In this document: piece by piece, positions 3,786-47,150 of the stretch
How positions within the stretch are numbered: position 1 is the first letter of the stretch
Layout: the number at the start of each line of letters is the position of its first letter
Assembly (NCBI GenBank): GCA_021776275.1
Contig: JAJFGH010000074.1
Coordinates: forward strand, 1-53,937
DNA from: Alphaproteobacteria bacterium
Lineage (GTDB): Bacteria; Pseudomonadota; Alphaproteobacteria; GCA-2746255
Direction: 5' to 3'
Length of the DNA: 53,937 nt
The notes under the pieces: model-generated
The model's input: only the letters and a program-made list of their open reading frames with translations
Told to the model about the DNA's origin: nothing
The model's database searches: none
Program-made: the position numbers and the translations under genes

Positions 3786-4503
3786 ATTGTTGCGCCAGCA
3801 CCGTTTCCAATTGCCGAAGCTTGTCATCGACGGAAATGTCCATTTCCGAGGTGATTTCAAGCTCGCGATCTTCATACACGTTCCGGTCCGGGTGCTGTTT
3901 TCCCCAGGCCTCCACGGCCAAATCGCGCCGTGCGATCAAATCAAAAATCTCGGGCTGAAAAAGCCGGACCATCGCCGTGACCCAGCGATTGACCGGCCAG
4001 GACGGACGCGCCTGGTCCATTTCGAATCGCGCGATCATTTGGCAAACGTCCTTCGCCACATACCATGCTTCGCCGGTTACCCAGCGGTTTGTCGTGAACA
4101 GGCTGGTCGGGAAGCCATAGGCGTCCATCGAGATCGCAATCAGATGGCTTAGCGCGCCGTTGCTATCCTCGGGCGTCTCGAAATCCGGCAAAGGGGCCGG
4201 CCGCATGCCCGCGGGCATGCCCTTCGGCCGCAAGAAGACGTGAAAATGGCCGTGTTCCTCCCGGTCTTCCCGATGGGAATGGTAATAATATTGGGAATGG
4301 GTTTCCCCATCATAGGCGTCCCCATCCGGGTAGTGATTCCACTGATAAAAGGTCTCGTGGCCACGGATCAGCTCGCCAACGATGTTGTCCCCGGTCTTGG
4401 CGAGAAGCCGGTAGCATTCCAGGATTTCTTGAGCGGCCGCCATCTGCGCCTCCAGCCGGGGGCGTGGGATCGAGGCAAGGGCCGTCTTTTCGCTTTCAGC
4501 CAT
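3784..4503 (-). CDS. Conserved hypothetical protein with a His-rich segment
   Basis: ORF 3784..4560. The likely start is MAESEK at 4503. Contains HSQYYYHSHREDREEHGHFHVF. No family can be assigned from sequence alone. Confidence 0.65.
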   Translation of the reverse strand: MAESEKTALASIPRPRLEAQMAAAQEILECYRLLAKTGDNIVGELIRGHETFYQWNHYPDGDAYDGETHSQYYYHSHREDREEHGHFHVFLRPKGMPAGMRPAPLPDFETPEDSNGALSHLIAISMDAYGFPTSLFTTNRWVTGEAWYVAKDVCQMIARFEMDQARPSWPVNRWVTAMVRLFQPEIFDLIARRDLAVEAWGKQHPDRNVYEDRELEITSEMDISVDDKLRQLETVLAQQ

Positions 4504-13942: not shown

Positions 13943-14152
13943 CGAAACCTCGTCGCTTGCGAGCGCCCAAAGGCGGGCACTCCCTCCCTCTAATTTCACC
14001 AGAAAGGCTGTGCCGACAAGGGCGTTTCATAACCTTTTGGGATGTCAGAAGAATTTTTGAGAAACCTGGGCTGCATGCGTCGCTTTTGAGCGGGCCAGCC
14101 TTGCGCTATCTTTAGAATTGTCCCCACAATAGCAACGCGACAAGGAGGAGCC

Positions 14153-16339
14153 GTGTTACCTCGCATCCATTATGCGTCACCTCGCTGTCTTAAATTGCTC
14201 CTTGCGATGCTTGCCATCGCTTGTGCCACAATTTTTGTTTCCCGGTCAGCCTTGGCAGAAACCCGCTACGCCCTTTTGGTGGGCGTGAACGATTATGAAA
14301 GCCTACCGGCTTATCTGCAATTAAAAGGCCCGCGGAACGACGTGGAATTGGTTGCCGGCGTCCTTCAGGAAAATGGGTTTGAAGAATCCCACATCACCCT
14401 CCTGACGGACGGGCTGGAGGGCGCAAAAAAACCAACGCGCGCTGCTATTCTCTCCGAGCTTGGAAAGCTGGCCGCCAACGTTAAGAAAAAAGATTTTGTC
14501 TATCTCCATTTTTCCGGCCATGGCTCGCAACAGCCCATAAACCCTACGGCCAAAGGCACCGCCTGGGAGACGGACGGCCTTGATGAAATTTTTCTGCCAG
14601 GTGACATCGGCAAATGGGACAACGCCATCGGCAAGGTTGCGCGTTCGATCACGGATGACGAGCTGGGCGCTGCAATCACGAAAATTCGCAATCGCGGCGC
14701 TTTCGTTTGGGCGGTTTTCGATGCCTGCCACTCGGGAACCATGACGCGCGGCCTGCCCTCGGGTGAAGAAGCCATGCGTTTACGAAAAGTAGCGCCATCC
14801 AGCCTTGCCATTCCGGATTCGCTCTTCGAATCCGACATATCCTCTCTGCCGTCTTCGGCTAGGGAGGAAGGGCCAGGGTTTATGGAGGAAGCGGGTGGCT
14901 ACGTTGCCTTCTTTGCCGTGCAGACGACGGAAACGACACCGGAAATGCGCTTGCCGGCAGGCCATCCGGAACGCCGTTCCCAAGGTTTATTCACCTTCAC
15001 GGTGATGCAGGCGCTGGCCACGGACCCAGACGTGACCTATCGGCAACTTGGAGAGCGTGTGCTGCAGATTTATGCGTCCCAAAACCGCCGCAATCATACG
15101 CCCCTGTTCGAAGGAAGCGCACTGGACGCCCCGCTCTTCGGTAGCCGCCCGCAGCGCCAGGCGCGGCAATGGAAGGCCAAACGGAAAGACGATCTCCTCT
15201 ACATTGCCGCCGGCAGCCTTCATCAATTGGCGGAAGGGTCCATTTTCGCCATCGTAGCGAAGGCCAATTCGAGCCAGGACGCGGTTTTAGGCTATGTCCG
15301 CCTTGAAAAAGCGAACGTGTTGCAAAGCAGGCTTCTTCCCATTGCCCATCGGGGCGTCCCGGCCTTGGCATCAACGGACATCCCGGATCACGCTTATGCC
15401 CGTCTGGCATCCCAGCGCTTCACGCCCGGCATTCGAATAGCCAAGCCCCCTGCATCCACACCACCGTCACCGATAGACCGTGAAGTTGCATCGCTCCTCG
15501 ATGCGCTTGCCAAGGCATTGGGGAAAAAGGAGGACGGCATCGCCATCACGTGGGTTCCGCCGAACCAGATGGCGGATATCCGCTTGGCGATCGGAGAATC
15601 GCCGGACACCGCCGGCCCCGTTCTCTGGCTGTTGCCGCCGTCGAGCGAAATCGTAACGGAGGGTGCCGGCAAAACCCATTCCATCGCCCTGAACGCAGGC
15701 CGGGATGCCATCTACGAAAAGCTGGAGACAAGCTTTATGCGGATGGCCAAAATGTTCAACCTCTTGAAGCTTGCAAGCCAACTTTCCACAAGCCGGACCG
15801 CCAAAAAAATCGAGCTTTCGGCGAAAGTCACACGGGCGGGTACGGGAAAAACGGAACGCTATTTTCCTTCCGACATTCCCTATTTCCAGGCCAGCGATGT
15901 TGTCGAATTTGCAATCGCGAACCCAGGCCCCCTGCCTTTGGATCTGACCCTTCTGTTCGTCGATACCGATTTTGGCATCACGCCCCTTTTCCCCACCGAA
16001 GCGGGCGAAATCAACCGCATCGAAGCAGGGGGATTCTACACATTGCAAACCGAGGTAAATGCCGAGACGGTCGGCCTGGAACGCCTGATCGTAATCGCCG
16101 TCGAGGCCGAGGCGAACGCGCCGCTTGTTGAGTTCACTTTCCTTGCACAAGCGAGCCTTCCGCGCACGCGCGGGAGGAAGTCGAATGATTCCGCCACGCG
16201 TCCAAATGCCGAATTGGAAGCCATGTTCCGTCACGCGGGTTTCAACCCCCCACGAACGCGCGGACTGACTCCAGAGCGATCAACGTCGGAACGGGCCGGC
16301 ATGCGGATCTTCAGCTGGCAGACCTTGCCGCCGAAATAA
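14153..16339 (+). CDS. Secreted caspase-family (peptidase C14) protein with a C-terminal DUF4384-like domain
   Basis: Signal peptide, YALLVGVNDY, catalytic dyad contexts LHFSGHG and FDACHSG. The C-terminal segment ASDVVEFAIANPGPLPLDLTLLFVDTDFGITPLFP resembles DUF4384. Confidence 0.9.
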   Translation: MLPRIHYASPRCLKLLLAMLAIACATIFVSRSALAETRYALLVGVNDYESLPAYLQLKGPRNDVELVAGVLQENGFEESHITLLTDGLEGAKKPTRAAILSELGKLAANVKKKDFVYLHFSGHGSQQPINPTAKGTAWETDGLDEIFLPGDIGKWDNAIGKVARSITDDELGAAITKIRNRGAFVWAVFDACHSGTMTRGLPSGEEAMRLRKVAPSSLAIPDSLFESDISSLPSSAREEGPGFMEEAGGYVAFFAVQTTETTPEMRLPAGHPERRSQGLFTFTVMQALATDPDVTYRQLGERVLQIYASQNRRNHTPLFEGSALDAPLFGSRPQRQARQWKAKRKDDLLYIAAGSLHQLAEGSIFAIVAKANSSQDAVLGYVRLEKANVLQSRLLPIAHRGVPALASTDIPDHAYARLASQRFTPGIRIAKPPASTPPSPIDREVASLLDALAKALGKKEDGIAITWVPPNQMADIRLAIGESPDTAGPVLWLLPPSSEIVTEGAGKTHSIALNAGRDAIYEKLETSFMRMAKMFNLLKLASQLSTSRTAKKIELSAKVTRAGTGKTERYFPSDIPYFQASDVVEFAIANPGPLPLDLTLLFVDTDFGITPLFPTEAGEINRIEAGGFYTLQTEVNAETVGLERLIVIAVEAEANAPLVEFTFLAQASLPRTRGRKSNDSATRPNAELEAMFRHAGFNPPRTRGLTPERSTSERAGMRIFSWQTLPPK

Positions 16340-16356
16340 CGAAAAGACGGCGCGTC

Positions 16357-19239
16357 TTATTCCGCAGGCTTTAGAAGACTGGAAGGAAGAACGAGACGAA
16401 AGCCCGAAGGCACGGCCAACGGCCGTCGCGTCGTTGGGGTTTGTTTTCCGCCCGTTAATTCGAAGACCCGCTCGGACAGATAGACATCCAACATCGAGAC
16501 CGTGATGTAAGGCTTCTTTCGATAGGCGGCCTCTCCCCCAATGGCCTCCAGCAAGGCTTCCGTAAAGGCGCCGTTTCGCCAAACCTCGCTTTCCAATGAA
16601 AGCTGTTCGCTAGCCGAGGAAGCAAAAACCACAACGCCATATTCCGGGCTGGCAAGGTCGTTGACAACGCGGTTGACGTCTACGGGCGGACGATCCCCTC
16701 CCCAAACCCCGGCGGCATGGCAGGTATCGACGAAAAGGAACGTTCTGGCAGGAATGCTGGCCAGGGCGTCCCGGATTTTTTCATACGGCATCGCCGTTTC
16801 TTTCAAGCGTTCCGGATCCACTTTAGTCGGCAGGAAAAAATAATTTCCCTTTGCATCGTCAACGCCATGACCGGCAAAAAAGACGATGGCAACGTCGCCT
16901 GGCTGCGGCGCCGTTTGAATCCATTCGAGCCCTGCAAAAATATTTTCGAGAGATGCCTTATCATCCTGAAGAAGCTTAGTCTCTACGGAATGGTAAAGGC
17001 CTCCTTTTTGAAGCTTGGCGATCGCGGTGAAGTCGCGGGCATCCTGGTTCGCATAATTGAGCCGCAGCGCAGGATTTTCATAAGCACTTATCCCGACCGC
17101 CAATACGTAGAGCGTTGGCTTTCCGCCAGCCGCATTCCTGCCGGTCAAGGCGTAGGAAGCCGCTTCGCTATAGACGCCGTGACGATTCTTGGCGACAACC
17201 GAGATGCCCCTGGCATTTTTTGGAATTGTGACGTCAAGGCGATGCTGGGTGCCATCTGCCGTCGCCGCGATCTTTCCCTCGATGTCGGCGATCGGCCTGC
17301 CGTCCGCCATAATGCGGATTTCTGCCGCAGGCTCTCCGTTTGCCGAACGCAGGGAATAGCGAAGCGTAACCTGATCCGGGCCCGCCGCCTTCTCGGTGGC
17401 CTCGATCGAGATGACCGGAGGCAAGATCTCGGCAATGCCGCGTTGCCGTTGCTTGCGGCCGGCAGCGCGGTTGGCGGCGGCCAGCGCCTTGCCTTCGTCC
17501 AGAAAAGCCAGAACCTGGCCGACGACGTCCGGGCGGTAAAGGTCATCGCGAAAACGCGAGACGGAAAAGAAATCCGCGGCGTACCCCTTGCCCCGGTTCA
17601 CATGCCAACCGATGAGGTCGTCCCCGCCAGCGGAAGCCATGTAATAGCCCGAAGGCGTCCACGCCACCCACCGCTTGTCCCGGTGCGGGAAAAGGGCAAG
17701 CAGTTCTTCGCCATCGGCCACGCGATACCAACGGATGGTGCCATCCCCAAGGGCAAGAATGGCAAGCTTGCCGCTTTGCGCAACGTTGACGGCCCAGACC
17801 TGCTCGGGCGTTTGCACGTTCCAAATCTCTGCGCCCTTGCGGTCAAAATGGCGCAGGCGCCAACGGGTGCCCAACAGAAAGCTGTCGCCATCCGGCAGAA
17901 TGGCGAGGCTAAAGGCCCGTTCATGGCGCTTGAGGGGAAGCGGACGGCCCTGAAGGGTCGGCTCGCGGGAATCCCGCCAGTTTTCAATGACGAGCCCCTC
18001 GCCCTCGGTGACCGGCGGCAAGAAGCCATCTCCAGCCGCGGGCGGATCGCGCGTCAAAGCGCGCGCGGCAATCGAAAAACGCGCCGGCGACTGCCCCCAA
18101 CGATCAAAGCCGAAAAAAACGGTGCCGCCATCGGGGGAAACGAGAAACCGGTCGTCCAGATTTTGAAACTTCGCGATCGACGTCGTTTGCGTAAAAACCC
18201 TTCGGAAAGAAGAGTCGAAAGCGCCAAAGGCCGGGTCGTCACTTGCATAAAAAACGCCACCGTCTTTCCGCGCAAGCAGGTGCATCACCATATCTTGCGA
18301 AGCCGCTCTCTCAAGGCGCCGGCCTTTCCCGCTTTTGTCCCAGCGAAGAAGAAGCTTGCGACCGCCTTTCTCATATTTACCGGCGGCGAAAAGAAAACGG
18401 CCATCCAGAGACCAGGCAACCCGAGCTAAATTTCCCTTCTCGATGCCATTTATATCGGGCGTAAAAAGAAGCGCGAGATCGCGCGCGGAGAACACCTCTA
18501 CAAGCGGCTCATCATACCCCACGGCGATTTTCTCTCCATCCGGCGAAAAGCTCGCCATGACGGGGATTCGCGCCGGCAAGGACGGCGTCTTTGCGATCCG
18601 GCGAAAGGACGCATCGTAAAGCCGGACATGACCATCCAGAGAAGCCGTGACCAATCGGCCATCCTGGGCGAACTCGGCCGAAAGCGTATCGTCCTCGTAA
18701 TCCTTGTCTTCGGCGACAAGCCGAAAATCCTTTGCGTCATAGATTCGAAGGCCATGCTCCGACTTGAAAGTGACCGCCAGATAGTTGCCGTCTTGCGAAA
18801 AAGCCAAATGCAGGGGCCGAAGCGGCAAGTCGCCGATTCGACGGATCATCTGACCGGAAGCCGTCTCAAAGAGATAAAGGCTCCAGTCCTCGCCCCAGCC
18901 ACCGGTCCAACCACCCGCGACGATACGCTTGCCATCGGGAGAAACGGCCAGCGCATAGAGGGCGCCCTCCTTGCCGGCATCAATGGGCATGCGGATGACC
19001 CGGATCAGCTCGCCTTTCGGCAGCGCCCAAACCCGGATGGTCTTGTCATAAGAGGACGTAACGAGGATGCGGTTGGCGGCGTCCACGCCAAAGCGATTGA
19101 TCGAGGCCGTGTGGGTACCCGCCTCGATCCGGAGAATGGGGCTTTCCGGCGGAGCGGTACCTGCCGCTACAGCTTGACGCGCGCTGGAACCCATCGCCAA
19201 AAGGGCGCAAAAAACGCTTATAAAAGTAATGAATCTCAC
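16357..19239 (-). CDS. Secreted WD40-repeat protein with a C-terminal caspase (peptidase C14) domain
   Basis: 960 aa with a signal peptide. Multiple WD-like blades (SSYDKTIRVWAL, SLDGHVRLYD, LGDGTIRWYRV). C-terminal LYVLAVGISAYEN, FFAGHG and FVDTCHAAG. Confidence 0.9.
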   Translation of the reverse strand: MRFITFISVFCALLAMGSSARQAVAAGTAPPESPILRIEAGTHTASINRFGVDAANRILVTSSYDKTIRVWALPKGELIRVIRMPIDAGKEGALYALAVSPDGKRIVAGGWTGGWGEDWSLYLFETASGQMIRRIGDLPLRPLHLAFSQDGNYLAVTFKSEHGLRIYDAKDFRLVAEDKDYEDDTLSAEFAQDGRLVTASLDGHVRLYDASFRRIAKTPSLPARIPVMASFSPDGEKIAVGYDEPLVEVFSARDLALLFTPDINGIEKGNLARVAWSLDGRFLFAAGKYEKGGRKLLLRWDKSGKGRRLERAASQDMVMHLLARKDGGVFYASDDPAFGAFDSSFRRVFTQTTSIAKFQNLDDRFLVSPDGGTVFFGFDRWGQSPARFSIAARALTRDPPAAGDGFLPPVTEGEGLVIENWRDSREPTLQGRPLPLKRHERAFSLAILPDGDSFLLGTRWRLRHFDRKGAEIWNVQTPEQVWAVNVAQSGKLAILALGDGTIRWYRVADGEELLALFPHRDKRWVAWTPSGYYMASAGGDDLIGWHVNRGKGYAADFFSVSRFRDDLYRPDVVGQVLAFLDEGKALAAANRAAGRKQRQRGIAEILPPVISIEATEKAAGPDQVTLRYSLRSANGEPAAEIRIMADGRPIADIEGKIAATADGTQHRLDVTIPKNARGISVVAKNRHGVYSEAASYALTGRNAAGGKPTLYVLAVGISAYENPALRLNYANQDARDFTAIAKLQKGGLYHSVETKLLQDDKASLENIFAGLEWIQTAPQPGDVAIVFFAGHGVDDAKGNYFFLPTKVDPERLKETAMPYEKIRDALASIPARTFLFVDTCHAAGVWGGDRPPVDVNRVVNDLASPEYGVVVFASSASEQLSLESEVWRNGAFTEALLEAIGGEAAYRKKPYITVSMLDVYLSERVFELTGGKQTPTTRRPLAVPSGFRLVLPSSLLKPAE

Positions 19240-19290
19240 AAATTGATAGCCATTTCAGTAGGTTAGGCAAATCGCCCTTTAGGGATACCC

Positions 19291-19320
19291 TTGACTTAAC
19301 CGGAAAGTTGGCATCAAAAT
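19291..19320 (+). promoter_or_regulatory. Candidate sigma70-type promoter of the peptide/radical SAM operon
   Basis: TTGACT (19291-19296), an 18-nt spacer, then CAAAAT (19315-19320), about 40 nt upstream of the first small ORF. Prediction by eye only. Confidence 0.3.
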
Positions 19321-19359
19321 CAATAGCCTGATTTTCATCGTCTCTTTGGGGGAACGGTC

Positions 19360-19506
19360 ATGAAAACGTCCAAATTGCTCGCCTGTTTTTTCGTCATCGC
19401 TTTCGCATTCGCCTCTTTCGCACCGGTCGTGATGCTTGGTGGCAACGCCCATGCGAGCGCCGGAACCGGCGAGGCCTGCGAAGCCGGCCCGGATGGGGAA
19501 TGCTAG
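19360..19506 (+). CDS. Small secreted Cys-containing peptide (48 aa, not in ORF track)
   Basis: GGGGGA ribosome-binding site 6-7 nt upstream of ATG 19360. Translates MKTSKLLACFFVIAFAFASFAPVVMLGGNAHA/SAGTGEACEAGPDGEC, a canonical Sec signal with an AHA cleavage site and a 16-aa mature part with a CX7C pair. TAG at 19504-19506. Confidence 0.5.
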   Translation: MKTSKLLACFFVIAFAFASFAPVVMLGGNAHASAGTGEACEAGPDGEC

Positions 19507-19553
19507 CGGCACACCAAATTGCTGCGAGCTTTCTAGCCCCTACCTTTCGGAGG

Positions 19554-20249
19554 ATGGCCGCGATGTTTTCGAAGCAGCCAAGATTCTTTCTTTTTGCGTT
19601 CAGCGCAGCGTTTCTTTTGACCTTTGCCGCACCCCAAGCCGCGGAAAAGGCGTCCAATGTCGAAGTGGAAACGCTGCGAAAGGTCAACCTGGCGCGCCAG
19701 ATCATTCAGCTTGGGATCGAAGACAAGGATCCCTTCGCCCTGATCGTCGCCGCCCGGATTTTCCGAGAAATCCCGCCAATTGAAGGGCCGCCGCCGAAGA
19801 AGATCAGCGGCAATTTGGCTGAGGACCGATCCACCGGCTCCGAGCAGATGTCCCTCGTTCTCGATCACTCGGTCGGCAATCTTTTGAAGAAGGCGCGGGA
19901 ATTTGCCGGTGACCGCCAGGACATTCTCGCCTTGATCGAGGACATTGCCGCCATGTCCCCCCGCGGCGCAGGCGGTGTCATACATCTGGATCAAATTCTT
20001 TCCGGCAAGACGGATGCCTATGAAATTACCTATGAGGGGAAAAAGCCCGCCGCTCTTTATATCGAAGCGCAGGACAACGTCGATTTGGACCTGCGCATCG
20101 AAGACAAGGCGGGAAAGAAAATCTGCGAGGACATGCGCCAGGGCGTTACCTCGCTTTGCGAATGGGACCCCGAAGAGACGGCGCCATTCGTCATCAAAAT
20201 CATCAACACAGACGACACACCAACCGAATACATTCTGTTGACGAATTAG
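19554..20249 (+). CDS. Secreted hypothetical protein, C-terminal beta-sandwich (pre-peptidase C-terminal-like) region
   Basis: ORF 19500..20249. Start is probably ATG 19554 or 19563, next to GGAGG. Signal peptide FFLFAFSAAFLLTFAAPQA. The C-terminus ALYIEAQDNVDLDLRIEDKAGKKICED...CEWD resembles PPC domains. Confidence 0.7.
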   Translation: MAAMFSKQPRFFLFAFSAAFLLTFAAPQAAEKASNVEVETLRKVNLARQIIQLGIEDKDPFALIVAARIFREIPPIEGPPPKKISGNLAEDRSTGSEQMSLVLDHSVGNLLKKAREFAGDRQDILALIEDIAAMSPRGAGGVIHLDQILSGKTDAYEITYEGKKPAALYIEAQDNVDLDLRIEDKAGKKICEDMRQGVTSLCEWDPEETAPFVIKIINTDDTPTEYILLTN

Positions 20250-20267
20250 GCCGTTGACGATGGGGGC

Positions 20268-20492
20268 ATGAGACAAATGACAGCGCGCCTACCTTTTAGA
20301 AAACGAACCATTCAGAAAGCTTCCCGCTGGACATTGGCGCTGGTGAGCGCCTTCGGCCTTGGCGCGATTTCCACGCCGCCCGCCATGGCCGCCGAAAGTG
20401 AAAAACCAATCGGCCCGATCGCATCCGATGCCGGGGCAGAAATGTTGGCTCAAACCAGCTGCGGCTGCGCCGTGACCGGGGTGCGGGGGTAA
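20268..20492 (+). CDS. Candidate RiPP precursor peptide A1 (signal-peptide-like leader, core ...EMLAQTSCGCAVTGVRG)
   Basis: 71-74 aa (ATG 20268 or 20277). Paralog of A2. Differences between the copies are concentrated at synonymous third positions in this frame. Located immediately upstream of the radical SAM gene. Confidence 0.65.
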   Translation: MRQMTARLPFRKRTIQKASRWTLALVSAFGLGAISTPPAMAAESEKPIGPIASDAGAEMLAQTSCGCAVTGVRG

Positions 20493-20505
20493 AAGGAGTA
20501 CGAGC

Positions 20506-20709
20506 TTGCCATTGAGAAAACGCACGATCCGAAAAGCCGCCCATTGGGCCCTGGCGTTGATGGGCGCCTTTGGCCTTGGCGCTTCTCCCACATCCACCAT
20601 GGCCGCCAAGGCGGAAAGCTCCCCCTTGCCGACAGCCCCCGATGCCGAGGCGGAAATGCTGGCCCAGAATTGTTGCAGCACCACCACCGTGACCGGAGTG
20701 CGGGGTTAG
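20506..20709 (+). CDS. Candidate RiPP precursor peptide A2 (core ...EMLAQNCCSTTTVTGVRG)
   Basis: TTG start 7 nt after an AAGGAG ribosome-binding site. 67 aa. Shares the RKRTI-K...W-LAL--AFGLGA N-region and the EMLAQ...VTGVRG C-terminus with A1. Confidence 0.65.
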   Translation: MPLRKRTIRKAAHWALALMGAFGLGASPTSTMAAKAESSPLPTAPDAEAEMLAQNCCSTTTVTGVRG

Positions 20710-20742
20710 GGAAACCGAACCCAGGCACCCGCCCATACGCCG

Positions 20743-22512
20743 TTGCGAATTCTTCGTATCCTCCCTCCCGGTCGCTTTCCGACGGTCGTCCACGACCCAG
20801 GCCGTTGGCTGGACCGTCTCGCCACGGATCCCGGCATCGAGGTCCTCTCCTACAGCTTGAACCATGCCTGGTGGCGTGTCCTCTGTTCGCCCGCCGTCTG
20901 GAAGGCCGTGCTCGCCCCCCTCTCCGCGACCCAGCGCCTGCGCAGACGTCTCGAATGGTCGGCCGCGGATTTTGAAGCAAAGGCAGGCACCAAAGCCGCC
21001 GCCGAGGCGCTTGCGAATTTCTACCGGCCGGAAACCTATGCCAATCGGGAAGCCTATTTTACGGCCGTCATGGCCCTTGCCAGGCACGTGGAGGCCTTAA
21101 ACGGCGCGCAAGATGAATTGACGTTTTCCCTACAGCATGGGGTCCTAGCGCATGGGCTGAATTATCGGGCAAGCGCGGAACTGGTCCGGTACGCAAACCG
21201 TGACACGCTGCTTGCGCGTTCGATGGTGGCGGCCCTCGAAGACTGTCCGGAAGCGGTGGATCTGCTTTGCCTCTCCGCCAACTCACCGTTTGATTTTCTG
21301 ACGGCGCTTATCGCCGCCCGCCTTCTTCGCGAGCGCCATCCGCGTCTTCACATATGTCTCACCGATCATGGTTATGAGAATTTCTCCCTGCAGCCGCATC
21401 TCGATCGCCTCCGCCAAGCCGGTACGCTGGACACGATTTTCGACACGGTGATCGAATCGCGGGACGAGCGGGACGTCATTTTGCCGGCGCTAGCCCAGCG
21501 GATAGCGGCCCAAAAACCCATCCGCGGTTTCTTGCGGAAAACCGAATTCCCAGAAGCTCCAGCGGCTTCCTCCGCACAAGCCTTGCCCGCCCCTCTTGTG
21601 CCGACCTTCTCAAGCGAACCGGTGCTGTGGACGCGCATTAGCCAACGGCGCTGTTATTGGAGCCGCTGCACGTTCTGCACGCAAAATTCAAAATATGATG
21701 ACCCGCGGGTGCCTACGAAGTCCGAAATTGCCGGCGCTTTGGATCGCATTCAGGCACAAATCACCGCCGGTTATCGGAACCTGCATTTCTCGGACGAAGC
21801 CGTATCGCCGGCGCTTCTCCGCCTTTTCAGCGAAGGCATCCTGGAGCGTGGCCTTTCTTTTCGCTGGGGATGCCGGTGCAAGCTTGACCCCTCGCAGACG
21901 CCCGAGCTGTTTCGTCTTGCCCGCGAGGCGGGGTGCTACGAAATCATCTTCGGGCTTGAGAGCATCTCGCCGCGCGTTCAAAAATTGATGGACAAGCATG
22001 TGGAGGGATTGGATCAAGAGCGGATTGCCGAAATTTTTGGCGCCGTCCACGGGGCGGGGATTGCCCTTTTCATCAATTTGATCGCCGGCTTCCCAGGTGA
22101 TACGCCCGAGGAAACGACGGCATCCGTGGCGTTCCTGATCGACACGTGTCAAAATTTCGAAAACACAACCTATGTTTTGAACCCCTTCGGGCTTTTCCCC
22201 GCGACGCCGATCATGGACAACCCCGCCGCCTTCGGCGTTGTTCCCATTGAGGCGGCAGGCGATATGGTGTCGGCCTATGGCTACGATCTGGACCCAAAAA
22301 TCCGCGACGCCACCTTGGCAGCCGCCGCGGCCATGCCCGAGATGAAAGCGCGCCTGAACGCCGCGTTTGGCTGGGATCGGCTGGGCCTTGGCGCAACCCT
22401 TGAGACGGTGCAGGCGCTTTATTTCGAAATGGGTCATGGCGCCCTTTTCAAGGCCATGCCCCATAACCCATTGGCAAATTTTGCCGGAAGACCCGATCGG
22501 CGCGCCTCATGA
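20743..22512 (+). CDS. Radical SAM protein with an N-terminal B12-binding-like domain and atypical CX4CX2C cluster motif
   Basis: 589 aa. RRCYWSRCTFCTQ at nt 21652-21678 (Cys304, Cys309, Cys312). The downstream region (GCYEIIFGLES, INLIAGFPGDT) is typical of class-B-like radical SAM cores. No C-terminal Cys-rich SPASM/twitch region. Confidence 0.88.
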   Translation: MRILRILPPGRFPTVVHDPGRWLDRLATDPGIEVLSYSLNHAWWRVLCSPAVWKAVLAPLSATQRLRRRLEWSAADFEAKAGTKAAAEALANFYRPETYANREAYFTAVMALARHVEALNGAQDELTFSLQHGVLAHGLNYRASAELVRYANRDTLLARSMVAALEDCPEAVDLLCLSANSPFDFLTALIAARLLRERHPRLHICLTDHGYENFSLQPHLDRLRQAGTLDTIFDTVIESRDERDVILPALAQRIAAQKPIRGFLRKTEFPEAPAASSAQALPAPLVPTFSSEPVLWTRISQRRCYWSRCTFCTQNSKYDDPRVPTKSEIAGALDRIQAQITAGYRNLHFSDEAVSPALLRLFSEGILERGLSFRWGCRCKLDPSQTPELFRLAREAGCYEIIFGLESISPRVQKLMDKHVEGLDQERIAEIFGAVHGAGIALFINLIAGFPGDTPEETTASVAFLIDTCQNFENTTYVLNPFGLFPATPIMDNPAAFGVVPIEAAGDMVSAYGYDLDPKIRDATLAAAAAMPEMKARLNAAFGWDRLGLGATLETVQALYFEMGHGALFKAMPHNPLANFAGRPDRRAS

Positions 22513-23414
22513 CGACGGTCTTTCTCACCGGCGCTTCCGGCCAGCTTGGCCAAGCGGTGGCAGGCGAGTTGCTGGCCCGGGGCCATGAGGTGGCGGCGAT
22601 GGTGCGCCGGCCCGTTTTTCCCAAGGGTTGTCGCCCGGTTCTCGGCACGCTCGAAGACGTCGGCCAATTGGCCCATGAGATAGCCAAGGCCGACGCCATC
22701 GTCCATGTCGCATCGGCACGCAGCAACAACCGGGAAGAGGTGGTTCAGAAGGACATCCTTGGCACTGGGCATCTTCTCGATGCCTGGGCGCGAGGAAACT
22801 TCGTCTATGCCAGCAGCCAGACGGTTTACGGCGTGCCCCAAGGCGACCTTACCGAGGCCGCCCCCTTGCAACCGGTCGTCTGGTACGACCTTGGAAAAAT
22901 CTGCAACGAATTTCAAATCGCAATGGCGGCGGAAACGGGCAATCGTGGCGCCGGCCTTTCCCTTCGCATGGCCGTCATGTTTGGCCCCGTTGCAAAAAGC
23001 AAAGGCCCGCCGCAATTTCACGAGATGATTTACGAGGAATGCCAAAAAGGCAGCGCGTTTCTCCTGGATTCGGAGGAGGCGCTTGAAACCTACGGCACGT
23101 CCTTCATCGGCGATCGCGACTTGGCACGCGCCATCGCCGATTCTATCAGCCTTACCGAGACCGGCCCCTACAACATCGCCGGGCCTTTCTGCAGCTGGAA
23201 GGAATTGATTGAAACCATCGACCGATTTGCCGGCACGCGGTCGAAATTCATCTTTCGGAAAGGCGCCGTGCCAAAGCCTGGGGAATTCCGCTTGCCGCAA
23301 TCGCGCTCGTTTATCAATTCACAAAAATTCGACGCGGCAACGGGCTTTTGCGCAGAACAAACTTTGGAAGAACTGATTGAGCGGTTTGTCCAATTTCGCA
23401 GCGACTCTAAATAA
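22509..23414 (+). CDS. NAD(P)-dependent epimerase/dehydratase family (extended SDR) protein
   Basis: TGASGQLGQAVAGELLARGHEV Rossmann motif and a YDLGK (YxxxK) catalytic motif. ATGA overlap with the radical SAM stop. Confidence 0.9.
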   Translation: MTTVFLTGASGQLGQAVAGELLARGHEVAAMVRRPVFPKGCRPVLGTLEDVGQLAHEIAKADAIVHVASARSNNREEVVQKDILGTGHLLDAWARGNFVYASSQTVYGVPQGDLTEAAPLQPVVWYDLGKICNEFQIAMAAETGNRGAGLSLRMAVMFGPVAKSKGPPQFHEMIYEECQKGSAFLLDSEEALETYGTSFIGDRDLARAIADSISLTETGPYNIAGPFCSWKELIETIDRFAGTRSKFIFRKGAVPKPGEFRLPQSRSFINSQKFDAATGFCAEQTLEELIERFVQFRSDSK

Positions 23415-23676: not shown

Positions 23677-23884
23677 TTGACTTATTCCTTCTTTAATTGT
23701 CATAGCCGCCCGCACGTTACGCGTAGGCGCGTCCTCGTTAAAAAATTCCTGGGGTATAGCAGCTAGGTCGGCTTGACAAAGCAGGATACGTCCGGGTCTT
23801 CGAAGACGAAGAGGATGATATAGGGCGAAGGCCACAAAATTTCAAAGAATTTGTAAAAACCCCTTGTAAATCAGGGGGGATAGG

Positions 23885-23934
23885 TGGTGGGCGCACACGG
23901 ACTCGAACCGTGGACCCGCTGATCAAGCGTCAGG
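23885..23934 (-). pseudogene. tRNA-Lys 3' fragment (degenerate anticodon arm, T-arm, acceptor 3' strand, CCA)
   Basis: The reverse complement reads CCTGACGCTTGATCAGCGGGTCCACGGTTCGAGTCCGTGTGCGCCCACCA. The T-arm CACGG/TTCGAGT/CCGTG is intact, but the anticodon loop has G at positions 33 and 37 and there is no proper D-arm upstream. Confidence 0.6.
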
Positions 23935-24199
23935 TGTGCTATCTAGCAAACGGTCGTTTAACGCGCCCCTGCGAGGGCGAACGACGACATGGTCGCGGCC
24001 TTGAGCATGGCGTGGTTCGGGGTGATGCACTGCTCGGGCTCACTCGGCCCGCCGAGGGAGGTCAATTGGTAGACGGAGATTTACACGAAGGAAACCAACA
24101 CCTTCCTCGGTATCTAAAAGGGAGTTAGTTAGCGACAAGTCTACTACAAGTTGGCTATAATCCAATTCTGCGACAAATGTGCGCAAAGGAGGATAAGAG

Positions 24200-24847
24200 T
24201 TGGATACGAACGTCCCATATATGCCGTCGGTGACCAACCTCCAGAAAATCTTGGACGCAATCCAAAAGGCTGGCGTTCCTGAAGTTTTTAATCTCGACTT
24301 TTTGAAGGACTTAGGATTTACGAGTTCCAATGATCGACCAGTAATCAAGGTCTTGAAATATCTCGGTATGCTAGACCCTTCAGGGCACCCGCAGACTGCT
24401 TACCGTGAGTTTGTTGACCATACTAAGGCAAAGGGAGTGCTCGCAGGGCGCATACGCGCCGCCTTCGACGACCTTTACCTCAGCGACAAGGATGCTCACA
24501 ACAAATCTGCAGAACAGCTTAAAGGCTGGTTCAAAACCAAAACAGGTGCAAGTGATTCTGTCGCGAAAAAGATGGCAACGCAGTTCAAATCACTTGCAGC
24601 CTACGCTGATTTCACAGCCGCCCTGGATGCTGAACCCAAAACCCCAGAGGCGGAGCCTGAAAAGAAAGATAAAATTGAGCCAGAAAAAAACGATAAGGAG
24701 AAGCCAACGGATTTACCGCCGCCTCCCATATCTGACATGAAGGGTTTGGGCTTTGTTTATCGGCTGGAAATTCATCTTCCTGACACGCAGAATGTGGAAA
24801 CGTTTCGCGCGATTTTCCGTGCTCTGCGAGAAGAGCTCATGCCGTGA
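24200..24847 (+). CDS. DUF5343-like protein
   Basis: TTG start after an AAGGAGGA ribosome-binding site. The N-terminal VPYMPSVTNLQKILDAIQKAGVPEVFNLDFLKDLGFTSSNDRPVIKVLKYLGMLD pattern matches my recollection of DUF5343. Acidic/Lys-rich linker. Confidence 0.65.
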   Translation: MDTNVPYMPSVTNLQKILDAIQKAGVPEVFNLDFLKDLGFTSSNDRPVIKVLKYLGMLDPSGHPQTAYREFVDHTKAKGVLAGRIRAAFDDLYLSDKDAHNKSAEQLKGWFKTKTGASDSVAKKMATQFKSLAAYADFTAALDAEPKTPEAEPEKKDKIEPEKNDKEKPTDLPPPPISDMKGLGFVYRLEIHLPDTQNVETFRAIFRALREELMP

Positions 24848-25419
24848 AATCACAGATAAACGATTTTGTCTTCACCGGGGTCCTGGCTTCACACTGCATC
24901 CGTGACCTGCAAGCTAAAGGTCTCCTCCGAACGCCAGCGGTAACACCTGACGAACGGCGCGAACAAGATTTGTTCGCACCGGTCCCGGAAAGTATCCGCG
25001 GCGGCTCCATTCAGATGCAGCGCTGGTATCGAATGCTATTTGTATTTGAGAATCTCGTGCGAGACTTCATTATTACTCGCTTAAAGGAACTAGACGGAGA
25101 AGGTTGGTTTGAAAAACGTGCATCAAGCCAGATGAAGAAAAAAGTCGAGGATCGGGAGAAGAATGAGGAAAAAAATCAATGGCATATCGGTAGAAATAAG
25201 CAGCCTATTTTCTATCTGGATTTCGGCGACCTTGGGCTCCTTATCACCAACCACTGGAACGTTTTCAACGATTTCTTCGATAATCAAGCTTGGGTCATTA
25301 GCCGCATTCAGGATGCAGAGCGGACGAGAAATGTTATCGCGCACACGAATCTCCTGTCCTCTGAAGAAGGAGAACGTCTCGAAATGTATTTACGAGACTT
25401 CTTAAGGCAGATCGGTTGA
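24844..25419 (+). CDS. Swt1-like HEPN domain protein (putative RNase)
   Basis: GTGA overlap with the upstream gene. Rx4H motif RNVIAH at nt 25327-25344, with an upstream helix FENLVRDFI typical of HEPN. Confidence 0.7.
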   Translation: MKSQINDFVFTGVLASHCIRDLQAKGLLRTPAVTPDERREQDLFAPVPESIRGGSIQMQRWYRMLFVFENLVRDFIITRLKELDGEGWFEKRASSQMKKKVEDREKNEEKNQWHIGRNKQPIFYLDFGDLGLLITNHWNVFNDFFDNQAWVISRIQDAERTRNVIAHTNLLSSEEGERLEMYLRDFLRQIG

Positions 25420-25476
25420 GGCCAAAGACACAGCATCGTGCGCTCGGCCCTACACGCCGGGACCAGTATCAGAGCG

Positions 25477-26022
25477 ATGGATGATCCCGCGACATGGAAG
25501 GACCTAATTCCGGTTATCAGCGTGATGACCGCACTGGTAGCAGTCATCGTTTCGCCACTCGTGAGCTGGATGATCGCCAGACGCCAACTCGACATCGTCA
25601 AACACCAGATTTCTTCTTCAAATGTTTCCTCTAAGAGGCAAGTCTGGATAGACGAGTTGCGGCAGGACATCGCCGAGGCTCTAGCCCTAATGTCTCGAAT
25701 TGAAGAACTTAAAAGACCAAGCCCCAACCTTAATGAAAATGAGCATCTAGAGGTTTTTGATCGGAGAATGGAAGCCGAGTTACGTGCTACCGAACTCCTG
25801 ATGCGGATCAGGCTGCGGCTTAACCCAAATGAGCAGGTACACAACGACTTGGTGAGTGCGTTTCAAGAGGTTGCGCTCGCGGCCCCTGATCCAAAGCCGG
25901 GTGAGACGGAAGAAGACCGACACAGGTTGCAGGCAGGGTTTAAATCTGCCCGCGACAAAGCCCTTGGGATCACGCAAACGATTCTGAAGAATGAGTGGAA
26001 CCGCGTACGACGCGGCGAATAG
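25477..26022 (+). CDS. Small membrane-anchored hypothetical protein
   Basis: ORF 25438..26022. The likely start is MDDPATW at 25477. One N-terminal TM helix (LIPVISVMTALVAVIVSPLVSWMIA), then a helical, charged region. Confidence 0.55.
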   Translation: MDDPATWKDLIPVISVMTALVAVIVSPLVSWMIARRQLDIVKHQISSSNVSSKRQVWIDELRQDIAEALALMSRIEELKRPSPNLNENEHLEVFDRRMEAELRATELLMRIRLRLNPNEQVHNDLVSAFQEVALAAPDPKPGETEEDRHRLQAGFKSARDKALGITQTILKNEWNRVRRGE

Positions 26023-26084
26023 CACGAGAGACCCGTCTACTTTTCTAGTGCGTAGTAGGGAGAAGCATCAAAGGTCAAATTAAA

Positions 26085-26115
26085 TGGGGTCAGAACGATG
26101 TGCCGTTCTGACCCC
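26085..26115. terminator. 12-bp hairpin just downstream of the tRNA-Lys 3' end (likely tRNA terminator on the minus strand)
   Basis: GGGGTCAGAACG-ATGTTGC-CGTTCTGACCCC. On the minus strand it is followed by ATTTAATTT. Confidence 0.5.
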
Positions 26116-26125
26116 TTCGAGGAAT

Positions 26126-26410
26126 TGGTGGGCGATGCAGGGCTCGAACCTGCGACCCGCTGATTACTCCACCACTACGGCTTTCGCCGCCCCTTTCGGG
26201 TTTGTGGCCCGGACTATCCCATCACCATATCCCGGAGGATGTAGGTGGGTGCCGTCTAGTCTCTACACCTTCCCCTTGCGGGGCTTGGCTCGGGATTGCC
26301 AACGTCCATGGACGGAAGGGTTCCCCGAATTTGACACCTGTTCACCGCGCCGTTTCCAACGCGGGCTCCCAATCGAGAGTCAGCTGCTCTACCAACTGAG
26401 CTAATCGCCC
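26126..26410 (-). tRNA. tRNA-Lys(CUU) interrupted by a 209-nt group I intron in the anticodon loop
   Basis: 5' exon 26376-26410: GGGCGATTAGCTCAGTTGGTAGAGCAGCTGACTCT (positions 1-35). 3' exon 26126-26166: TAATCAGCGGGTCGCAGGTTCGAGCCCTGCATCGCCCACCA. Spliced, this gives a 76-nt cloverleaf with anticodon loop CUCUUAA. Confidence 0.9.
26167..26375 (-). ncRNA. Group I (IC3, Azoarcus-like) self-splicing intron
   Basis: Contains GGTGTCAAATTCGGGGAACCC, TTGGCAATCCCGAGCCAAGCC and GGAAGGTGTAGAGACTAGACGGCACCCACCTA, which closely match the Azoarcus tRNA-Ile intron core as I remember it. P1 is exon CUCU paired to GGAG with a U.G wobble at the splice site. P10 is GAUU paired to exon AAUC. The intron ends in G. 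Confidence 0.85.
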
Positions 26411-26530
26411 TTAGTGATTCCCCCGTTTAACCTCAACATCAATAAGCGAAAAGTCATCAAAATGCCATCAAAATCTTAGCTAAATAACGACTAACCTATT
26501 GTTTTTACTACAGTTACAGCCGACACACCA

Positions 26531-26573
26531 TCTGATTAAGAGTCAGCTGCTCTACCAACTGAGCTATGCGCCC
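26531..26573 (-). pseudogene. tRNA-Lys(CUU) 5' fragment (acceptor 5' strand, D-arm, anticodon arm; no T-arm)
   Basis: The reverse complement reads GGGCGCATAGCTCAGTTGGTAGAGCAGCTGACTCTTAATCAGA. It is followed by non-tRNA sequence (TGGTGTGTCGGCTGTAAC...). Confidence 0.6.
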
Positions 26574-46716: not shown

Positions 46717-46842
46717 TGGGCCTTCCACGCGTTCGTCCGGTCGGCACTTTAGCGCCTGGGTCCGGCCAAGGCCAGCGCTCCCGCGCGCGAAAATCCCCCC
46801 GGCCAACCTTTCCACCGCGCCCCGAAGTGCCTATATTAGAGG

Positions 46843-47150
46843 GGTCGGTTTTCCGGCTATGGCAATAAACGTTAAGTGAAATAGACGGTGCGGACCCGGG
46901 GGCAGTACCCGGCGCCTCCACCAAATTTACCTGCCCAATCGTCTTGGACGATGGGCGCTTTGGGGGCGAACTAGGATCGACGCACGTGATAAAGGCTTAA
47001 TTTTTGCTCGGTATGATACCACCGTTATCGGGTCGTTTTATAAGTGCCAATGACAACAATCGTTATGCACTCGCTGCTTAAGCATTAAGCAAGCGCGGTC
47101 CGGGGGGCACCGGGCAACAGAAGCCCCCCACCTGCCACCTGCGAAGCCGG
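46843..47150 (+). ncRNA. ssrA: Circularly permuted (two-piece) tmRNA gene ssrA; outer boundaries approximate
   Basis: The acceptor piece ends CCGGG-GGCAGTA-CCCGG-CGCCTCC-A-CCA at 46923. The coding piece starts GGGGGCGAACTAGGATCGACG at 46962. GGGGGCG/CGCCTCC form an acceptor stem with a G3.U70 pair. The tag ORF GCC AAT GAC AAC AAT CGT TAT GCA CTC GCT GCT TAA (47046-47081) encodes ANDNNRYALAA. Confidence 0.8.

Follow-up and report, generated by a model that had tools for sequence, protein, structure and literature searches.

Downstream of rodA, the alphaproteobacterial DNA studied here contains two pieces of a tRNA-Lys(CUU) gene, and the islet between them carries a complete tRNA-Lys(CUU) of its own, interrupted by a group I intron. 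How did the resident gene come to be broken, and what might an intron do in its replacement? The whole 53,937-nt stretch is referred to as the window; all of its tRNA features lie on the minus strand, and their coordinates are collected in Table 1. An original prediction, made from the letters of this stretch, had interpreted the locus as a tRNA gene split by integrated DNA. Our analysis makes it likely that the islet is a 2.6-kb remnant of an integrative, probably phage-derived element that entered the tRNA-Lys(CUU) gene resident downstream of rodA.

A resident tRNA-Lys(CUU) gene is split in its anticodon arm

The 5' fragment is identical to nucleotides 1-42 of the intact genes found in two loci fetched for comparison, L002 and L223. 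It had been counted as 43 nt long; positions 26573-26532 are tRNA nucleotides 1-42 indeed, but the 43rd base (A at 26531) is not derived from tRNA. The 3' fragment starts with a diverged copy of the anticodon stem-loop, after which 39 nt (23923-23885), running through the encoded CCA, are identical to the functional gene. The halves can be joined in two registers and ARAGORN folds both products into the canonical tRNA-Lys(CUU) cloverleaf. Joined halves equal the tRNA-Lys of L002 base for base, which bears out the splitting of one resident gene; derivation of the fragments from different ancestral genes was considered and found not to apply.

Overlap between the two fragments is confined to a direct repeat of 15 nt derived from the anticodon stem-loop. 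As predicted, the repeat is imperfect (13 of 15 positions identical): one core copy, CTGACTCTTAATCAG, lies at 26532-26546 in attL and the other, CTGACGCTTGATCAG, at 23919-23933 in attR. The pattern CTGACNCTTNATCAG occurs in the window at these two junctions only. About 0.02 occurrences are expected by chance, and none of 100 shuffled sequences contained two. The short inverted sequences that the original prediction had placed at both junctions are present as well, GGTGTG at 23929-23934 and CACACC at 26525-26530. CACAC and GTGTG thereby mark the element ends in inverted orientation, immediately outside the core repeat, with CACAC standing before the 3' fragment in the tRNA sense. A flanking inverted repeat of at least 5 nt, 0-3 nt away from the core, was obtained in about 1.3% of random trials.

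Neither junction contains a tRNA gene. Beyond the core the sequence is unrelated to tRNA: after TAATCAG, attL reads on as ATGGTGTGTCGG, so the target is not regenerated there, and the displaced 3' fragment (23885-23934) stands as direct repeat at the far end of the islet. In default mode ARAGORN reports no tRNA in the window, hence neither junction is scored as a gene. This had been regarded as unusual. The lack of a tRNA at the junction stands, but the phenomenon itself has been described before (PMC10865867, PMC11476347). Since the other 81 nt of the fragments, taken together, show not a single change, attR appears to have its two mismatches from attP, not from decay.

The site is uninterrupted in related genomes

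A RodA search of species-representative genomes yielded 80 loci, and 48 loci with Rhodospirillales-type rodA were scanned for tRNA genes. An intact tRNA-Lys(CUU) gene was found directly downstream of rodA in 26 of these 48. RodA of L002 is 83% identical to that of the window. Closer relatives were found by exact look-up of the window's CspA, which led to contigs 97% identical to the window. Four of them (L223-L226) have an uninterrupted tRNA-Lys(CUU) gene at the same place. Homology between L223 and the window ends at tRNA nucleotide 42/43 (L223 6584, corresponding to window 26532) and resumes at window 23933.

The comparison with related genomes thus revealed the expected uninterrupted gene, but in the 97%-identical relatives the site is not strictly empty. 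These four contigs harbour another islet of 1.1 kb that contains a CBS-domain gene only and no recombinase (L223 6619-7790). It is flanked by a regenerated tRNA-Lys gene and by a decayed, displaced 3' fragment (T-loop TTCGGGT), which is the footprint of a classical island. Window sequence following ACCA matches the flank of this displaced fragment in L223, not the flank of the functional L223 gene. The ancestral order was therefore rodA-tRNA-cspA, and two different elements have used the same anticodon-loop sublocation within one species. A classical island was also detected in Ferrovibrio (L039). It is 3.3 kb long, encodes a tyrosine integrase and is bounded by a 49-nt repeat that begins in the anticodon loop of tRNA-Lys(CUU). 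Taken together, the direct repeat, the intact gene of relatives and the homology break at 42/43 support site-specific integration in the anticodon-loop region, as had been proposed.

The islet carries an intron-bearing replacement tRNA

Between the repeats the islet measures 2598 nt and is, as noted originally, richer in A+T than its surroundings (50.7% G+C, compared with 58% in the flanks). In the tRNA sense it consists of attL, spacer, replacement tRNA, terminator, ORF3, PDC-M34B, PDC-M34A, gene remnant and attR, with the protein genes on the opposite strand. The claim that integrated DNA supplies a complete tRNA-Lys(CUU) with acceptor GGGCGAT and T-stem GCAGG agrees with the fold of the spliced exons, which ARAGORN recognises as tRNA-Lys(CUU). 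The replacement tRNA in its spliced form matches the resident one exactly over nucleotides 8-48; its exon 2 differs from the host 3' half. The group I intron, likewise part of the original prediction, matches Rfam Intron_gpI (RF00028) with 55.9 bits (E 1.4e-11), above the gathering score of 50.

To describe this intron further, 14 full-length intron-bearing genes were aligned. The consensus recovers both tRNA stems and group I helices, and compensatory changes are found in 41 of 78 pairs; when the homologous intron of Gordonia phage Daredevil (see below) is added, they are found in 33 of 81 consensus pairs. All 14 homologues share the U35.G wobble of P1 at the 5' splice site, and the 3' end of the intron reads GGAG with the final G. 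These features place the intron in a conserved family of probably functional ribozymes. The core stretches GGTGTCAAATTCGG and AAGGTGTAGAGACTAGACGGCACCCACCTA presumably resemble those of the Azoarcus intron.

Scanning of metagenomes with an exon-1/P1 pattern gave at least 120 contigs. Among the contigs listed, at least 17 intron-bearing tRNA-Lys(CUU) genes were recognised, and in at least 12 contigs such genes appear to be resident. A scan of IMG/VR for the exon-intron junction pattern gave eight matches, none of which is a tRNA. In kind of ribozyme and in location class (anticodon loop) the intron equals known bacterial tRNA group I introns; it differs from them in that the gene sits on a mobile element and replaces a tRNA gene that was destroyed. 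Williams' 2020 preprint lists 21 settings; the intron described here is set at position 35/36 of tRNA-Lys(CUU).

The layout recurs in other lineages

Similar loci occur in three metagenome contigs (L199, L105 and L168), which represent two further lineages and whose RodA proteins are 50-69% identical to that of the window. In each of them rodA is followed by a 5' fragment of tRNA-Lys(CUU) (nucleotides 1-40, ending in TAATC), an unrelated spacer of 78-105 nt and an intron-bearing tRNA-Lys(CUU) gene in the same orientation. The lineage of L105 is Reyranella/Enhydrobacter-like, and its close relatives L230, L234 and L235 carry an intact intronless gene. The 5' fragments of L105 and L168 contain point mutations and are thus decaying pseudogenes.

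In total, a broken resident gene precedes the intron-bearing one in four of six alphaproteobacterial-type genes. Upstream of the intron-bearing tRNA in the other two (L193, L139), alignments meant to reveal a degraded 5' fragment were no better than those with shuffled sequences. No broken resident gene was found ahead of intron-bearing genes with acceptor GGGCCGG or GGGCCGT.

Some further loci resemble this layout in part. In L117 (272-480), a 5' tRNA-Lys(CUU) fragment ends in CTCTTAAT; about 95 nt further on stands a tRNA-Lys(CUU) gene that is intact, has no intron and shows an altered anticodon stem (GGTGA/TCACT), and behind it comes an ORF resembling YD/RHS repeats. In L193 (11017-12523), the intron-bearing tRNA-Lys(CUU) gene is followed by a gene for a 345-aa protein, whose N-terminus looks TIR-like by eye, and by a small ORF; this segment may be a defence island 3' of an intron-bearing tRNA.

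Separately, metagenome contigs of both lineages start or stop within the tRNA-Lys gene (position 1 of L227-L229 and the contig ends of L231-L233). Such breaks are expected if the sequence beyond the anticodon loop is polymorphic in the population.

Relation to known tRNA-targeting elements

In classical tRNA-integrated islands, attP carries the 3' part of the tRNA and the gene is regenerated at the junction (Williams 2002; Islander, PMC4383910). The window islet shares with such islands, here represented by L039 and the CBS islet of L223, the target gene, the anticodon-loop sublocation and the displaced 3' fragment at the far end. Unlike them, it does not regenerate its target.

A closer counterpart is found among actinobacteriophages (Guerrero-Bustamante & Hatfull 2024, mBio; PMC10865867). 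Phages such as Fionnbharth, LeBron and Gaia use a tyrosine integrase and an attB located in a host tRNA gene. Their core is 8-17 bp long, the tRNA is not rebuilt, and lysogeny depends on a phage tRNA of the same isotype ("tRNA-dependent lysogeny"). The window shows the three sequence features defining this mode: an attachment site that overlaps one of the host's tRNA genes (often tRNA-Lys in those phages), a short core with no tRNA rebuilt at the junctions, and a tRNA borne by the element. On the other hand, those phages are complete temperate phages with tyrosine integrase, while the window islet has 2.6 kb, no recombinase and one truncated remnant of a phage gene family. Its host is an alphaproteobacterium and its replacement tRNA lies directly behind the junction. 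This tRNA retains the anticodon stem-loop of the target and contains an intron, whereas the tRNAs of Fionnbharth and Snenia are intronless and have different anticodon stems.

When the tRNA region of the window was compared with phage genomes by BLAST, the top match was Gordonia phage Daredevil (NC_048021.1). The matching sequence lies in an unannotated gap between the integrase gene and gp53 (record 42299-41821; L242 3325-3805). This gap contains a 16-nt copy of the tRNA-Lys(UUU) anticodon stem-loop, with the core-like sequence CGGACTTTTAATCCGC, and 155 nt further on a tRNA-Lys(UUU) gene with a 238-nt group I intron (311 nt in all, record 42131-41821). The match to the window has 67% identity over 250 nt, and the intron can be aligned with the tRNA-Lys(CUU) introns across all core helices. 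Rfam Intron_gpI at E<=0.01 missed it; BLAST, intron-mode ARAGORN and structural alignment recognised it. Exons of this gene are close to the Fionnbharth tRNA, which is experimentally functional, including its unusual T-arm. Daredevil has been reported to integrate at tRNA-Lys-TTT without rebuilding it, to have no tRNA of its own and to form clear plaques (PMC10865867), which makes the function of its intron-bearing tRNA-Lys(UUU) uncertain.

Both Daredevil and the window display a core, a short interval (155 and 121 nt, respectively) and a tRNA-Lys gene in the same orientation with a homologous anticodon-loop intron. They differ in that Daredevil is a complete phage with an integrase gene beside the core, has the anticodon UUU instead of CUU and carries the intron after nucleotide 34 instead of 35. 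The module seen in the window (core, about 120 nt, intron-bearing tRNA-Lys) consequently has a counterpart next to a real integrase gene.

Two prophages of Sinorhizobium meliloti, related to Mesorhizobium phage vB_MloP_Lo5R7ANS, inactivate tRNA-Leu(UAG) and carry a replacement with the same anticodon (PMC11476347). They resemble the window element in the alphaproteobacterial host, in the insertion into the central part of a tRNA gene and in the same-anticodon replacement. They are distinguished from it by the tRNA targeted and by being intact prophages with integrase, and PMC11476347 mentions no intron.

Probable origin of the islet

These observations are best explained by site-specific recombination between the attB core CTGACTCTTAATCAG in the anticodon stem-loop of the resident gene and a look-alike core of the element, CTGACGCTTGATCAG, flanked by CACAC/GTGTG. 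By analogy with the phages above, the recombinase would be of tyrosine-integrase type, and the crossover would most simply fall into the shared ATCAG. With only some 15 bp in common between attP and attB, no tRNA is rebuilt at the junctions. The lost tRNA would be complemented by the tRNA-Lys(CUU) of the element, which begins 121 nt past the left junction and has the same orientation as the broken gene. Its transcription could start at the resident tRNA promoter, as no terminator is predicted between the 5' fragment and the replacement tRNA and the promoter scan detected no sigma-70-like promoter within the 121-nt spacer. Maturation of the 285-nt precursor into a functional tRNA of 76 nt would proceed via self-splicing of the 209-nt intron.

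The recombinase itself would have been lost by internal deletion. This is suggested by the truncated gene at the islet's left end, which marks the left part as a deletion remnant. Its full-length counterpart is found upstream of PDC-M34A in L238-L240, encodes 138 aa and matches phrog_27743 (E 3e-12); translations were compared by eye (NDDMVAALSMAWFGV in the remnant, HDDYVAALALAWFGV in the full-length protein). This 36-codon remnant of a phrog_27743-family gene is the sole phage-related trace in the islet. The original prediction had found no integrase, excisionase or transposase, and we can confirm this: none is present among the three ORFs of the islet (Pfam: DUF5343, HEPN_Swt1 and no family), a Pfam search of 16 window ORFs returned no recombinase, and a six-frame search of the window revealed no tyrosine-recombinase motif. 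The integrase was probably lost together with the deleted part of the element. Of the two possibilities named earlier, an element decayed or one mobilised in trans, the truncated 138-aa gene favours the former.

Several points weigh against this interpretation. The islet encodes no recombinase and searches of the 54-kb window revealed none, so that the class of the enzyme follows from analogy only. The cores differ at 2 of 15 positions, and the 5 bp (ATCAG) shared at the presumed crossover are short compared with the canonical overlap of tyrosine recombinases (6-8 bp). Cargo genes are found elsewhere without tRNA-Lys, and their contexts revealed no intact parent element. That the replacement tRNA splices and functions is predicted from sequence, and the count of tRNA-Lys(CUU) genes applies to the 54-kb window. 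As to the recurrent loci, L199, L105 and L168 are short contigs in which the far end of the element is not visible, and L168 has host-like genes and no 3' fragment within 1.6 kb.

The strongest competing explanation, which we nevertheless consider rather unlikely, is that the islet never had a recombinase. It would then be a satellite or mobilisable islet, composed of att sites, replacement tRNA and defence cargo, and moved by an integrase whose gene lies in another part of the genome or in a helper phage. Two different integrase-less islets, that of the window and the CBS islet of L223, indeed occupy the same sublocation in 97%-identical genomes. Moreover, both window fragments are unmutated, which indicates recent insertion, yet no remnant of an integrase is visible. 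However, the islet breaks off on its left side within a gene whose counterparts elsewhere are longer, which is what a deletion remnant should show, and no integrase was detected across the 54-kb window. Homologous recombination in the rodA and cspA flanks could also swap islets within the species without any recombinase.

It is far less probable that the locus arose in two steps, i.e. that a classical island first rebuilt the tRNA and that the regenerated 3' half later disappeared along with the integrase through deletion or rearrangement, the 5' fragment being left by accident. The site is used by classical islands (L039, L223) and the islet bears signs of internal deletion, as such a course would require. 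Random deletions, however, would not stop within a few nucleotides of one position in four independent loci (...TAATCAG in the window, ...TAATC in L199, L105 and L168). They also leave unaccounted for the matching 15-nt repeat with its flanking inverted repeats and the complete replacement tRNA that follows about 100 nt downstream each time.

The chance that the intron itself drove the rearrangement seems slimmer still. In that case anticodon-loop DNA of the intronless gene would have been cut by a nuclease, as in homing, and repaired from an ectopic intron-bearing tRNA-Lys gene with one-sided homology, whereby the 5' half was duplicated. Breakpoints do lie 5-8 nt from the intron insertion site, and in L168 the 5' fragment and the intron-bearing tRNA have the same acceptor, the 3' fragment being absent from the 1.6 kb mentioned above. 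The intron of L139 is embedded in exons that equal the resident tRNA of L223 type save for the last base (ACCC versus ACCA), as if the intron had moved alone. Nevertheless, the 209-nt intron encodes no endonuclease, and the replacement tRNA has an exon 2 unlike the host 3' half. In the window this host half is a separate piece, 2.2 kb away behind unrelated cargo, and an att-like repeat is present at both ends. Accidental deletion and break repair are both disfavoured by the att-like repeat and by a breakpoint that stays constant across four loci.

That the fragments are unrelated leftovers of different tRNA-Lys genes, e.g. of a decayed tandem array such as those found downstream of rodA in L024, L036 and L037 (tRNA-Lys(CUU)), is practically negated by their joining into exactly one known functional gene, by the fact that 97%-identical relatives possess a single intact gene whose two flanks are the same, and by the restriction of their overlap to the 15-nt repeat.

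A possible role of the intron

If the islet derives from an integrative element as preferred here, its replacement tRNA poses a problem of its own. Since the spliced tRNA equals the resident one over nucleotides 8-48, an intronless version of the element would contain a perfect attB, separated from its own attP by about 120-155 bp. Its integrase would then cut such an element up, or siblings would re-invade it. With the intron in place, the DNA target is split (CTGACTCT, then TAATCAG), and self-splicing would restore the tRNA at the RNA level. We therefore put forward, tentatively and as a doubtful possibility, that the group I intron may serve as a self-immunity device guarding the tRNA gene of the element from its own integrase. 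This reading extends a proposal made by Randau and Soll for archaeal tRNA introns, as it is cited in PMC4390854.

In agreement with it, the anticodon stem-loop of the target is kept in five intron-bearing replacement tRNAs (those of the window, L199, L105, L168 and Daredevil) and altered in its stem in three intronless ones (Fionnbharth, Snenia and L117). On the contrary, this sample is small, and the right half-site TAATCAGCGGG remains intact despite the intron. Intron-bearing tRNA-Lys(CUU) genes of resident appearance, which occur in the dozen or more contigs mentioned above, and the clear plaques reported for Daredevil also speak against such a role. It is equally simple to assume that the element captured a gene that already contained the intron.

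Cargo and neighbouring sequences

Genes for PDC-M34A and PDC-M34B are adjacent and overlap by 4 nt. Both PADLOC PDC-M34 profiles are matched, which makes the two proteins a candidate defence (anti-phage) pair; no mention of PDC-M34 was found in the literature searched. The promoter scan located a promoter-like site ahead of PDC-M34A (24132-24161). No PDC-M34A was found in IMG/VR contigs.

For ORF3, about 120 homologues are found; they sit in different surroundings that lack tRNA-Lys. The closest ones (76% identical; L081-L086) are translationally coupled to a 236-aa protein without Pfam family (L081 1053-1763), not to PDC-M34. ORF3 may thus be a module that pairs with varied partners. An attempt to trace the parent element through its proteins placed ORF3 and close PDC-M34A homologues in varied contexts, all without tRNA-Lys, intron or integrase. 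The islet cargo is modular.

The spacer and the left stretch showed no similarity to fetched loci, at a stage when L238-L240 were not yet among them. Three candidate assignments in the left part were rejected. Interpretation of the 138-aa protein as a terminase C-terminus is unsupported by Pfam, its sole match being a PHROG without known function. An RNA or tRNA remnant was considered for the G+C-rich left end (23935-24199); it matches nothing in Rfam at E<=5, and the gene of L238-L240 explains this stretch. Finally, an inverted D-loop match at 24059-24073 looks like chance.

Table 1. Features at the split tRNA-Lys(CUU) locus, listed in the tRNA sense
Feature	Window position	Strand	Sequence features and support
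5' fragment of resident tRNA-Lys(CUU), nucleotides 1-42 (attL)	26532..26573	-	sequence GGGCGCATAGCTCAGTTGGTAGAGCAGCTGACTCTTAATCAG; Rfam tRNA model 29.8 bits
Spacer of 121 nt from attL to replacement tRNA, A+T-rich, derived from the element	26411..26531	-	begins ATGGTGTG, one inverted-repeat arm
Exon 1 of element tRNA-Lys(CUU), 35 nt	26376..26410	-	acceptor strand GGGCGAT; ends CTGACTCT
Group I intron, 209 nt, IC3-like core, between tRNA nucleotides 35 and 36, without ORF	26167..26375	-	Rfam Intron_gpI
Exon 2 of element tRNA-Lys(CUU), 41 nt including encoded CCA	26126..26166	-	T-stem GCAGG/CCTGC
Predicted hairpin terminator right after replacement tRNA, also 3' of convergent ORF3	26086..26115	-	13-pair stem and T-rich tail
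ORF3, 181 aa, uncharacterised, hydrophobic N-terminal segment, called membrane protein; cargo	25477..26022	+	no Pfam or PADLOC family
PDC-M34B, Swt1-like HEPN protein, RTRNVIAH (Rx4H motif); cargo	24844..25419	+	Pfam HEPN_Swt1 2.1e-12; PADLOC PDC-M34B 2.1e-56
PDC-M34A, DUF5343 protein; cargo	24200..24847	+	Pfam DUF5343 6.5e-40; PADLOC PDC-M34A 4.5e-65
Truncated 3' gene end, 36 codons and stop	23962..24072	+	blastn 74% over 95 nt to gene upstream of PDC-M34A in L238-L240
3' fragment of resident tRNA-Lys(CUU) (attR)	23885..23934	-	sequence CCTGACGCTTGATCAGCGGGTCCACGGTTCGAGTCCGTGTGCGCCCACCA
Native terminator of resident tRNA gene, now behind 3' fragment	23860..23877	-	terminator prediction; same flank after displaced 3' fragment in L223

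Outside the islet, a 9.3-kb block just past cspA (window 14102-23404) is missing from the 97%-identical contigs L223-L229 and represents a second strain-variable segment. Its contents include a radical-SAM protein (20743-22512) and an NAD-dependent epimerase (22509-23414), and its G+C content is like that of the rest of the genome. At 46805-47132 the window contains a two-piece (permuted) tmRNA gene of alphaproteobacterial type with the tag ANDNNRYALAA; no island or integrase is visible beside it.

Relatives of the window intron were also observed on plasmids. On pCTX-M3 (NC_004464.2, about 61840-62067; L236 about 3950-4250, minus strand), an unannotated stretch with about 71% identity to the intron lies between a tmrB-like ATPase gene, located beside aac(3)-IId, and a hypothetical gene. 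The same stretch is found in more than 1270 other plasmid records; these are conjugative resistance plasmids from E. coli, Klebsiella, Salmonella and Acinetobacter. Inspection by eye shows a tRNA-Leu(UAA) gene with a group I intron, and intron-mode ARAGORN reports an intron-bearing tRNA with the anticodon tta, labelled as a stop-codon reader. Rfam at the gathering threshold did not report this intron, which was recognised by BLAST similarity and intron-mode ARAGORN. Similarly, a Tritonibacter mobilis megaplasmid (NZ_CP015231.1; L237 about 3850-4450, minus strand) contains an unannotated intron-bearing tRNA gene, tRNA-Ile(UAU) according to intron-mode ARAGORN, with 74% identity to the window intron over 228 nt.

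Implications

Integration that destroys a tRNA gene and complements it from the inserted element was established experimentally only in 2024, in actinobacteriophages, and was called "poorly described" for the two Sinorhizobium prophages. While such integration with a replacement tRNA is known from few phages, no description has been given of its intron-bearing form, of which other bacteria and one phage provide further instances. Here the same logic extends to free-living alphaproteobacteria and to elements that end as tiny defence islets without recombinase, and it recurs at the conserved rodA-tRNA-Lys(CUU) site in more distant lineages.

Should the intron indeed protect the element from its own integrase, a concrete, testable and selectable function would be at hand for group I introns of bacterial tRNA genes, the persistence of which has lacked an explanation for a long time. 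In any case, a replacement tRNA can be intron-bearing and is then missed by standard tRNA finders. Daredevil, scored as lacking a tRNA yet having an unannotated one, illustrates that surveys of tRNA-dependent integration, as well as counts of tRNA genes, are likely to be underestimates.

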